From NCBI GenBank assembly GCA_903945435.1, contig CAJAVM010000026.1, positions 8,311 to 72,310 of the forward strand: DNA of 64,000 nt, given 5' to 3'. Under the pieces are notes generated by a model, which saw nothing but the letters and a program-made list of their open reading frames with translations, was not told the DNA's origin and did not search any database. The position numbers and the translations under genes are program-made. This DNA is from an uncultured bacterium (GTDB taxonomy: Bacteria; Patescibacteriota; Patescibacteriia; Patescibacteriales; UBA12465). Shown one piece after another: positions 58,010-59,326 of this stretch. Position 1 is the first letter of the stretch. Every line of letters begins with the position of its first letter.

Positions 58010-59326
58010 TTAATCCAATTGTTCAATTGCGTACTGTCTCAACATATACAAATACGGATTTTTTTGCGCCAAAATATTTAACGCTGCTAAAACCGCATTT
58101 TTACGAGACATAATAGTTAACAACGGAACCTGACTCGGAACATTGAGACTACTAAAAACATCAACTGCGTTTTCATCTGCAGTTAAAGGAACGGTAATCA
58201 CTGGCCAGCTAGTACGAGCGGCAAGCATCGGGCCTAAGCCATTGCTCATTCCAACCATAGCAATGATAACACCACCTTCGGGAGATTCGCCCAGAGTTAC
58301 TTCTAAAATATCGAGGCAAGCGCTAGGCGATTTATGACCGGAAACAATGATTTCACTAAAAGCAACCGAACGATGCGAAGGCAAGCCGCAGCCCTCAAGA
58401 TTCAGATCATTTTTCGAGCCTTTCCAGGTTACAATTCTTTGTTGAGGTAAAAGGAAAGCATCAGTCAACTTAGCAACCATGGCATACTTGCTACCGATTT
58501 CTTCCATGCCAGCATTATCACGGAAACATTGTTTGGAAACTTCTTCCCAAGCATTGGTCCGCAAACGCCAAGAATCATTATCGATTACATCAGCAATTAC
58601 TAATTCGCCGTTGGTCGTGATTCCAAATTCGATTTTAAAATCAATCAACCTGAAACCCAGCTGAGCCCAAGCTCCTTCCAAAATAAGGAAGGTTTTTCTG
58701 GTAATCTCCTCAATTGCAGTTAACACATCTTTTACATTTGATTCCAACTCCTTCACGGGTAAAAAATCTTCGGGATGAACTGAAAGCTTCAAAGAAGCAT
58801 TTTCATCCCAAGCCGGAAGTTTTGGATCCTGTAAATTCCAGGCCTCCATATCTTCATCATAATGAATGAATGGATCTTCAATTGGTGTTTGGCCAACTTC
58901 TTCTCCAGCCATCGTTTTAATGCTTTTCCCTGTTGTTTTCAAAAATAATTCAAACACTAAGGAATGAAACCGGAATGGCACCTTTTTTGATGTCGTTGCC
59001 AAGTTAGGAAACCGTTTTAAATAACTACCGACGGCATACCGACGAGCAATTACTTCTAACGGAACCATTTGACATTTTTCAGCTATGAATTCTGTAGTTG
59101 ATAACTGCTTAAAAAATGCTACCGGGATACCGGCGTCTTTTAAAAGCCTAAACACATTGCAGGTTGTTTGCGTTGCAAACACCGCCTTGTTTTACATCTG
59201 AGCAGTAAGCTCGGGAGTATCAAACTTCGTTAAAGCATCGAAGTTTTGCAGAATCACTGCATTTTCATCACTAGTCGCAAAAACCGCCTTGGTTTTTCCG
59301 CGATACAACTCTTGTCTTCTTTCCAT
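58010..59326 (-). pseudogene. PAICS-type bifunctional SAICAR synthetase (PurC) / AIR carboxylase (PurE) fusion, interrupted by one in-frame TAA (59194..59192)
   Basis: ATG 59326 opens MERRQELYRGKTKAVFATSDENAVILQNFDALTKFDTPELTAQM, followed by TAA. The same frame then continues NKAVFATQTTCNVFRLLKDAGIP... and is the 390-aa track ORF from GTG 59182. The PurC core contains ADVIDNDSWRL, and the PurE-like C-terminal half contains GSKNDL, SGHKSP and GMSNGLGPMLAARTSWPVITVP. Pseudogene status is uncertain. Confidence 0.8.

Follow-up and report, generated by a model that had tools for sequence, protein, structure and literature searches.

Fusion of an N-terminal SAICAR synthetase (PurC) with a C-terminal AIR carboxylase (PurE) in one polypeptide is a domain order best known from animals. 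The PAICS-type PurC–PurE proteins, exemplified by the human (2h31, 7ale) and silkworm (4ja0) enzymes and by homologues of ~430–445 aa in Patescibacteria, have the same domain order as the bacterial locus described here and are collinear with it over the whole length; however, the single uninterrupted polypeptide of ~430–445 aa that characterizes them is absent here, with a TAA standing at codon 45. In human PAICS, Gly16–Lys19 bind ATP and Thr40–Asn43 belong to the substrate site (PMC9376930). The best solved-structure matches of the bacterial protein studied here are the animal PAICS enzymes. Among bacteria, the PAICS-type order is frequent in Patescibacteria, and proteins of ~40% identity with this order are encoded in MAGs that bear the labels Xanthobacteraceae, Verrucomicrobiota and Dependentiae, among others (loci L051, L054 and L058–L085). 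Literature on purine synthesis and the PurC–PurE fusion in Patescibacteria was searched for, and nothing usable was found. Reductive evolution is typical of the CPR, or Patescibacteria, and here we analysed a purC–purE gene of this group in which it may have taken its first visible step.

The gene lies in a 64-kb stretch of DNA (the window, which denotes the whole stretch analysed) that is densely coding, chromosomal and has a G+C content of roughly 35%. On the minus strand, a frame opens at ATG 59326, runs through 44 sense codons and ends at TAA 59194..59192; the codons AAC AAG GCG follow, then GTG at 59182, and from here the same frame runs on for 390 codons before it closes at 58010. Translation thus bears out the initial annotation, which had placed a stop after codon 44 and a 390-aa remainder with a GTG three codons past it. 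The features to which we refer throughout are the following.

58010..59326, minus strand: the whole purC–purE frame (PAICS-type SAICAR synthetase plus AIR carboxylase) with one interruption, 438 codon positions plus the terminal stop, assigned from translation, Pfam, collinearity with 4ja0 and 2h31, and an AlphaFold2 model
59192..59194, minus strand: in-frame TAA at codon 45, next base A, found as TAA in nine independent contigs and as a sense codon in 78 of 78 orthologues
59192..59326, minus strand: upstream 44-codon ORF, comprising the N-terminal beta-sheet, the ATP-binding loop G10-K11-T12-K13 and substrate-site T33 and D36, residue roles being assigned by homology to human PAICS G16–K19 and T40–N43
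58010..59182, minus strand: downstream 390-aa ORF from the GTG, comprising the complete AIR carboxylase domain and, K47 and A48 excepted, what remains of the SAICAR synthetase domain from helix alpha-1 onwards, as read from translation, homologues and the model
59273..59290, minus strand: repeat copy 1, AAGGCGGTTTTTGCGACT, encoding K13–T18 (KAVFAT) at the end of the GKTK motif
59171..59188, minus strand: repeat copy 2, AAGGCGGTGTTTGCAACG, encoding K47–T52 (KAVFAT) at the start of helix alpha-1
59166..59180, minus strand: perfect 6-bp hairpin GUUUGC-AAC-GCAAAC, lineage-specific, which includes the last base of GTG 59182
59382..59410, minus strand: promoter-like TTGACA-N17-TAAGAT upstream of ATG 59326, a motif match at 10 of 12 positions
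56777..57961, minus strand: intact, divergent PurM-like gene directly downstream of purC–purE, a conserved partner in the two nearest genomes

The peptide encoded by the upstream ORF is MERRQELYRGKTKAVFATSDENAVILQNFDALTKFDTPELTAQM. When the two parts are read as one protein of 438 aa, Pfam SAICAR_synt (PF01259) matches from residue 7 and across the stop (E 1.3e-40), AIRC (PF00731) follows at residues 318–426 (E 1.4e-18), giving the order SAICAR synthetase then AIR carboxylase, and the alignment with human (2h31) and silkworm (4ja0) PAICS is collinear over the whole length, with the stop opposite human Glu51. The view that PurC/PAICS homology runs straight across the stop therefore holds. The AIRC domain (residues about 296–438) is complete and conserved, and all 73 family-invariant columns (73/73) are retained in the joined reading. 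Since its scores fall under the NCBIfam equivalog cut-offs for purC and for purE, the protein would represent a divergent CPR subfamily of PAICS-type fusions, and its activity is a prediction from sequence. The nearest intact relative is only about 70% identical.

The position of the stop within the protein matters for what follows. The invariant residues G10, K11, T12, K13, T33, D36 and T41 are all encoded upstream of it, and the N-terminal invariant residues correspond to the ATP site (G16–K19) and the substrate site (T40–N43) of the human enzyme; K47, invariant in 59 of 59 sequences, and the near-invariant A48 sit between the TAA and GTG 59182 and are thus in neither product. The AlphaFold2 model of the joined sequence is confident and PAICS-like (pLDDT 92) and puts residue 45 in a three-residue linker between strand 41–43 and helix 47–64; codon 45 is a variable surface-linker position.

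Whether the TAA is genuine was addressed through independent assemblies. The stop, together with the split into 44 and 390 aa, is found in nine retrievable contigs that are 100.000% identical to the window over 4.4–7.2 kb; they stem from the Logan runs ERR4220615, ERR4220617, ERR4210593 and ERR4221522, from the ENA assemblies ERZ18650584 and ERZ18650788 (different BioSamples) and from JGI 3300045649-51, so that three assembly pipelines and no fewer than four independent sets of reads are represented, compared at the level of contigs. The exact 390-aa and 44-aa products are recorded in NCBI, ENA, JGI and Logan assemblies (the 44-aa product on 15 contigs), while gene callers differ on the downstream start, giving products of 390, 381 or 300 aa. 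The nine contigs represent one clonal population (0 SNPs) that was sampled repeatedly and carried TAA each time. No intact, near-identical full-length protein was present among the matches of the homology search, and exact look-up of the six one-base revertant proteins (E, K, Q, Y, S or L at codon 45) in ~15 billion public proteins returned none of them. After its own population, the next relative is ~70% identical among the matches listed; diverged sister strains suitable for dN/dS were absent, cluster members being the same sequence with different start calls.

The TAA is thus a true feature of the genome and very unlikely to have arisen in sequencing or assembly. MAGs do at times contain erroneous single-base lesions, and an orthologue from another MAG, L037, has a frameshift, both of which would be in keeping with a sequencing or consensus error or with a minority allele that happened to be assembled. 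Nevertheless, the recurrence of the TAA across runs and pipelines, the lack of an intact version among the 15 billion proteins, the fact that systematic errors do not typically take the form of a G/A-to-T substitution and the intactness of the other genes across the 64 kb make this the least probable of the readings weighed here. The sequencing error considered in the initial annotation is essentially excluded on these grounds, and the population variant raised beside it finds no backing either, as no intact co-assembled allele was found and none of the six revertants exists among the proteins searched.

Comparison with orthologues, which had been proposed as a check on the nature of the lost codon, points to an origin within a single lineage. 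PurC–PurE fusions of ~430–445 aa from Patescibacteria/CPR metagenome bins are abundant among the homologues, the homology search having returned more than 4000 matches, and 78 of the 79 fused orthologues in species-representative genomes are uninterrupted. A sense codon occupies the stop column in 78 of the 78 orthologues compared, and the residue that it encodes varies widely (P, A, K, E, D and others); protein relatives carry E, K or T, and the two nearest genomes both have Glu, encoded by GAG and GAA. A split at codon 45 occurs in none of the 120 listed proteins or the 79 fused loci, so that, among the orthologues compared, the TAA is unique to this lineage. Because the nearest orthologues have Glu, one G-to-T change explains the stop, and the most parsimonious ancestral codon would be GAA; an A-to-T change from AAA would also suffice. 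The alignment contains no frameshift or indel at the lesion. L089, a candidate for a second nonsense-split orthologue, was rejected, as it is a naturally unfused PurC of 288 aa. The sole broken copy among the 79 fused orthologues is that of L037 (CAYXNV010000009.1), where a frameshift at about 7076..7083 falls near residue 365, in the PurE half.

In this organism, TAA is read as a stop, with no reassignment. Of the 57 genes that the window contains, 41 end in TAA, and in 19 of these an A comes next; TAA-A is one of the two commonest genuine terminator contexts. The gene for RF2, prfB, is intact (463 bits). An alternative genetic code was consequently rejected, TAA being the dominant genuine stop, RF2 being present and the other genes of the window being intact and free of in-frame TAA codons. 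We found no tRNA gene in the window, and an Rfam scan of the window returned no RNA family. The prfB gene itself (8310..9452, minus strand) is one uninterrupted ORF of 380 aa, without the programmed +1 frameshift site that this gene carries in many other bacteria.

Genes throughout the window lack Shine–Dalgarno-like motifs and start behind weakly structured leaders (mean MFE of -3.7 kcal/mol across 53 nt) in which A+T makes up ~80%. Against this background, GTG 59182 is atypical as a start for this genome: its local MFE is -10.8 kcal/mol compared to -3.7 ± 2.8 kcal/mol for genuine starts (1 of 55 is as stable), the A+T fraction upstream of it is 0.55 compared to 0.80 ± 0.14, and GTG is a rare start codon in the window. 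The hairpin at 59166..59180 is absent from the relatives L010–L015; it owes its existence to the Phe codon that also completes the KAVFAT repeat, and no function is evident for it. Upstream of ATG 59326, the promoter-like hexamers that had been reported at 59410..59382 are indeed present, matching the consensus at 10 of 12 positions, but sites of this quality are no more frequent in the region than expected (2 against 4.1), and no promoter-like site lies between ATG 59326 and GTG 59182.

No sign of decay beyond the TAA was detected in the PurC–PurE frame, be it a second lesion, loss of conserved residues or rate acceleration. Of 160 columns conserved in at least 90% of sequences, 3 deviate in the window protein, whereas the 59 intact peers deviate at 4.5 on average (sd 3.4). 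In Tajima-type relative-rate tests, run with 45 outgroups, none of the comparisons with 11 near relatives gave unbalanced counts (all p > 0.19), although the power is low, each branch having about 25 lineage-specific changes. PurC–PurE is 62–65% identical to its counterparts in L010 and L011, and the intact PurM-like neighbour 60–62%. The alignment, the conserved columns and the rate counts therefore support the description of the lesion as a single nonsense codon with no indel and no further decay. If the gene has lost its function, this means that the mutation is evolutionarily very recent; a gene still under selection would fit the missing second lesion equally well, and youth and continued constraint are inseparable here because the material consists of one clonal population (0 SNPs) and no relative is closer than 70%.

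The stop is bracketed by a direct repeat, which the initial annotation had put forward as a noteworthy feature. Its description was exact: AAGGCGGTTTTTGCGACT and AAGGCGGTGTTTGCAACG are identical at 15 of 18 nt, each encodes KAVFAT, and the two copies are offset by 102 nt. Its interpretation went too far, as nothing goes beyond the shared peptide. Two independent encodings of KAVFAT under the codon usage of this genome would be expected to share 14.8 of 18 nt, with a probability of 0.61 for 15 or more, and repeats of at least 15/18 nt within 150 nt occur in 25 cases in the window. The resemblance of the peptides is inherited: in close relatives, the two sites already carry KAVFAT / KAV[H/Y]AT, identical at 4–5 of 6 residues, and a single H/Y-to-F change completes the repeat, which has no demonstrable connection with the stop. 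A tandem duplication or gene conversion was rejected as the origin of the repeat, as the in-frame similarity is confined to the hexapeptide, most of its residues are already shared between the two sites in relatives, and the nucleotide identity equals the codon-usage expectation. Recombination between the copies would, as had been suggested, delete the stop in frame; it would not rescue the enzyme, because the deletion removes 34 residues including the invariant T33, D36 and T41. Loss of these residues led us to reject both routes of repair, be it a deletion or a ribosomal hop from one copy to the other. Likewise, in a bypass of the kind known from T4 gene 60, the matched codons exist here, but no stop follows copy 1, and whereas such a bypass needs a dispensable skipped segment, the 34 codons in question hold T33, D36 and T41.

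The surroundings of the locus are otherwise those of an intact chromosome, with EF-G, S7, S12, RF2, S9, RpoA, AlaRS, a mur/ftsW cluster, two MreB, ProRS, IleRS, SecA and NrdAB all uninterrupted in the window. PurC–PurE and the PurM-like gene form a conserved two-gene module (56777..59326 on the minus strand of the window, 6001..8487 in L010 and 5998..8775 in L011), in which the PurM-like protein scores 81 bits against a TIGR00878 cut-off of 236. No other purine-pathway gene occurs within about 6 kb, either in the window or in the two nearest genomes, and the window contains no second purC. Several further observations concern the window at large. At 59478..63956 (minus strand), and continuing off the end of the window, a giant protein is encoded (1492 aa inside the window; 2798 aa in the JGI call), which consists of repeated modules of roughly 100 aa, has a run of 15 glycines and no NCBIfam match, and is presumably a surface protein. 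Two full-length MreB paralogues, at 33106..34113 and 38454..39494 (both minus strand), lie about 4 kb apart. A putative ORF of 427 aa at 4543..5826 (plus strand), with a TTG start and on the strand opposite to its neighbours, has no Pfam or NCBIfam match and overlaps a minus-strand ORF of 132 aa.

Taken together, we consider it likely that a nonsense mutation of recent date, fixed in the population, has put at least the SAICAR synthetase half out of action and made the gene an incipient pseudogene; of the four possibilities listed in the initial annotation, the very recent pseudogene is thus the one favoured, given the genuine stop, the intact orthologues and the standard use of TAA. In the proposed scenario, one base substitution would have changed GAA to TAA at codon 45 of a PAICS-type purC–purE fusion on a patescibacterial (CPR) chromosome. 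Translation from ATG 59326 would end normally at the TAA and free a peptide of 44 residues with the GKTK loop and part of the substrate site, while the remaining 390 codons would be left without a start site of the type this genome uses. Any product initiated at GTG 59182 would lack the residues of the ATP loop and the substrate site as well as the invariant K47, and because these residues are split off or lost, SAICAR synthetase activity would be lost or nearly so. Homology suggests that the truncated products would be unable to supply the function, the ATP loop and T33/D36 being separated from the rest and K47 being lost. The stop and its recurrence, the intact orthologues, the missing decay and the standard use of TAA are direct observations; from these we infer that the enzyme is inactivated, that codon 45 was once GAA and that the part past the stop is not expressed. 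Two features count against a knockout. The TAA falls in a three-residue linker between the N-terminal sheet and helix alpha-1, a place structurally permissive for a split, and an in-frame GTG lies only 9 nt past it, within the reach of post-termination reinitiation.

These features are the starting point for the reading that the enzyme still works, either as a split PAICS-type enzyme (a 44-residue and a reinitiated 390-residue piece) or through a trickle of UAA readthrough in a slow-growing episymbiont, which we regard as unlikely; if true, the lesion would be a newly arisen variant of expression or architecture and not a knockout. Under its split form, ribosomes would terminate at the TAA and reinitiate at GTG 59182, and the 44-residue beta-sheet peptide would dock non-covalently on the 390-residue body and so restore the SAICAR synthetase site. 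The break in a short linker between secondary-structure elements, the nearby GTG, the absence of decay in either piece and the frequency of overlapping or abutting genes in this genome, which is consistent with translational coupling, all speak for such a two-piece enzyme. However, K47 and A48 would be present in neither fragment, the GTG lies in a hairpin behind an A+T-poor leader unlike those of genuine starts, the gene callers do not agree on where the second piece begins, and the split shows no sign of secondary adaptation and has no counterpart among the orthologues. The termination–reinitiation envisaged in the initial annotation is therefore disfavoured, and we hold it quite improbable. 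The other form, a full-length enzyme made by low-level or programmed TAA readthrough with a near-cognate or suppressor tRNA, would turn the stop into an expression throttle. It would profit from a column that tolerates E, A, D, K, P and other residues, such that any inserted amino acid might be acceptable, from a hairpin that starts a few nucleotides past the stop and, again, from the lack of decay. Yet no stop codon in bacteria leaks less than UAA, genuine terminators in this genome commonly read TAA-A and RF2 is intact, the hairpin is not conserved in L010–L015 and the stop is unique to the lineage, and the window offers neither a tRNA gene nor another gene with an in-frame TAA. Stop readthrough, which had also been suggested, is accordingly disfavoured and seems very doubtful.

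A further reading retains only the second enzyme: the SAICAR synthetase half would be lost, while a truncated product from GTG 59182 or a later start supplies AIR carboxylase and stays under selection. The AIRC domain is complete and conserved, as this would require, and the PurE domains form the oligomeric core in PAICS (2h31 and related structures). Against it stand the poor features of the start site, the possibility that the truncated SAICAR synthetase domain misfolds and the fate of the product, as we know of no use for CAIR without SAICAR synthetase unless a second purC is encoded elsewhere, and the window has none. We judge a PurE-only gene to be about as improbable as the two-piece enzyme. 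Each of these rivals, namely the two-piece enzyme, leaky readthrough, retention of the PurE half only and a minor intact allele, lacks positive support, and a recent inactivating nonsense mutation is the reading with which we proceed.

On this reading, the locus documents cleanly how gene loss begins in a patescibacterial genome, with one nonsense codon fixed in the sampled population before secondary decay has set in. The lesion fits the view that Patescibacteria shed nucleotide biosynthesis with growing dependence on a partner. It also calls for caution in annotation, since the 390-aa remnant is entered in public gene calls as an ordinary PurC/PurE protein, and a metabolic reconstruction would mistakenly credit the organism with this step. 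Should the enzyme work in two pieces or through readthrough, the locus would instead be a natural experiment on how far the SAICAR synthetase fold tolerates fragmentation, but nothing that we found points there. The finding is real but ordinary, most likely a step of genome reduction, and of modest significance.

Among known systems, genes with programmed readthrough or termination–reinitiation resemble this locus in that homology resumes, without a change of frame, behind an in-frame stop, which is followed by a hairpin and, at a short distance, by a start codon. Here, in contrast, the stop and the hairpin are found in no relative, the stop stands in a strong standard context, the start is atypical and an invariant residue is lost. 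The closer likeness is to the young nonsense pseudogenes of symbionts and host-dependent bacteria. Although extra lesions or measurably relaxed constraint are not seen here, so that only the very earliest stage of such a process would be compatible, the locus shares with them a single premature stop in a conserved gene, intact orthologues, a standard genetic code and a place in a lineage with reduced genomes.
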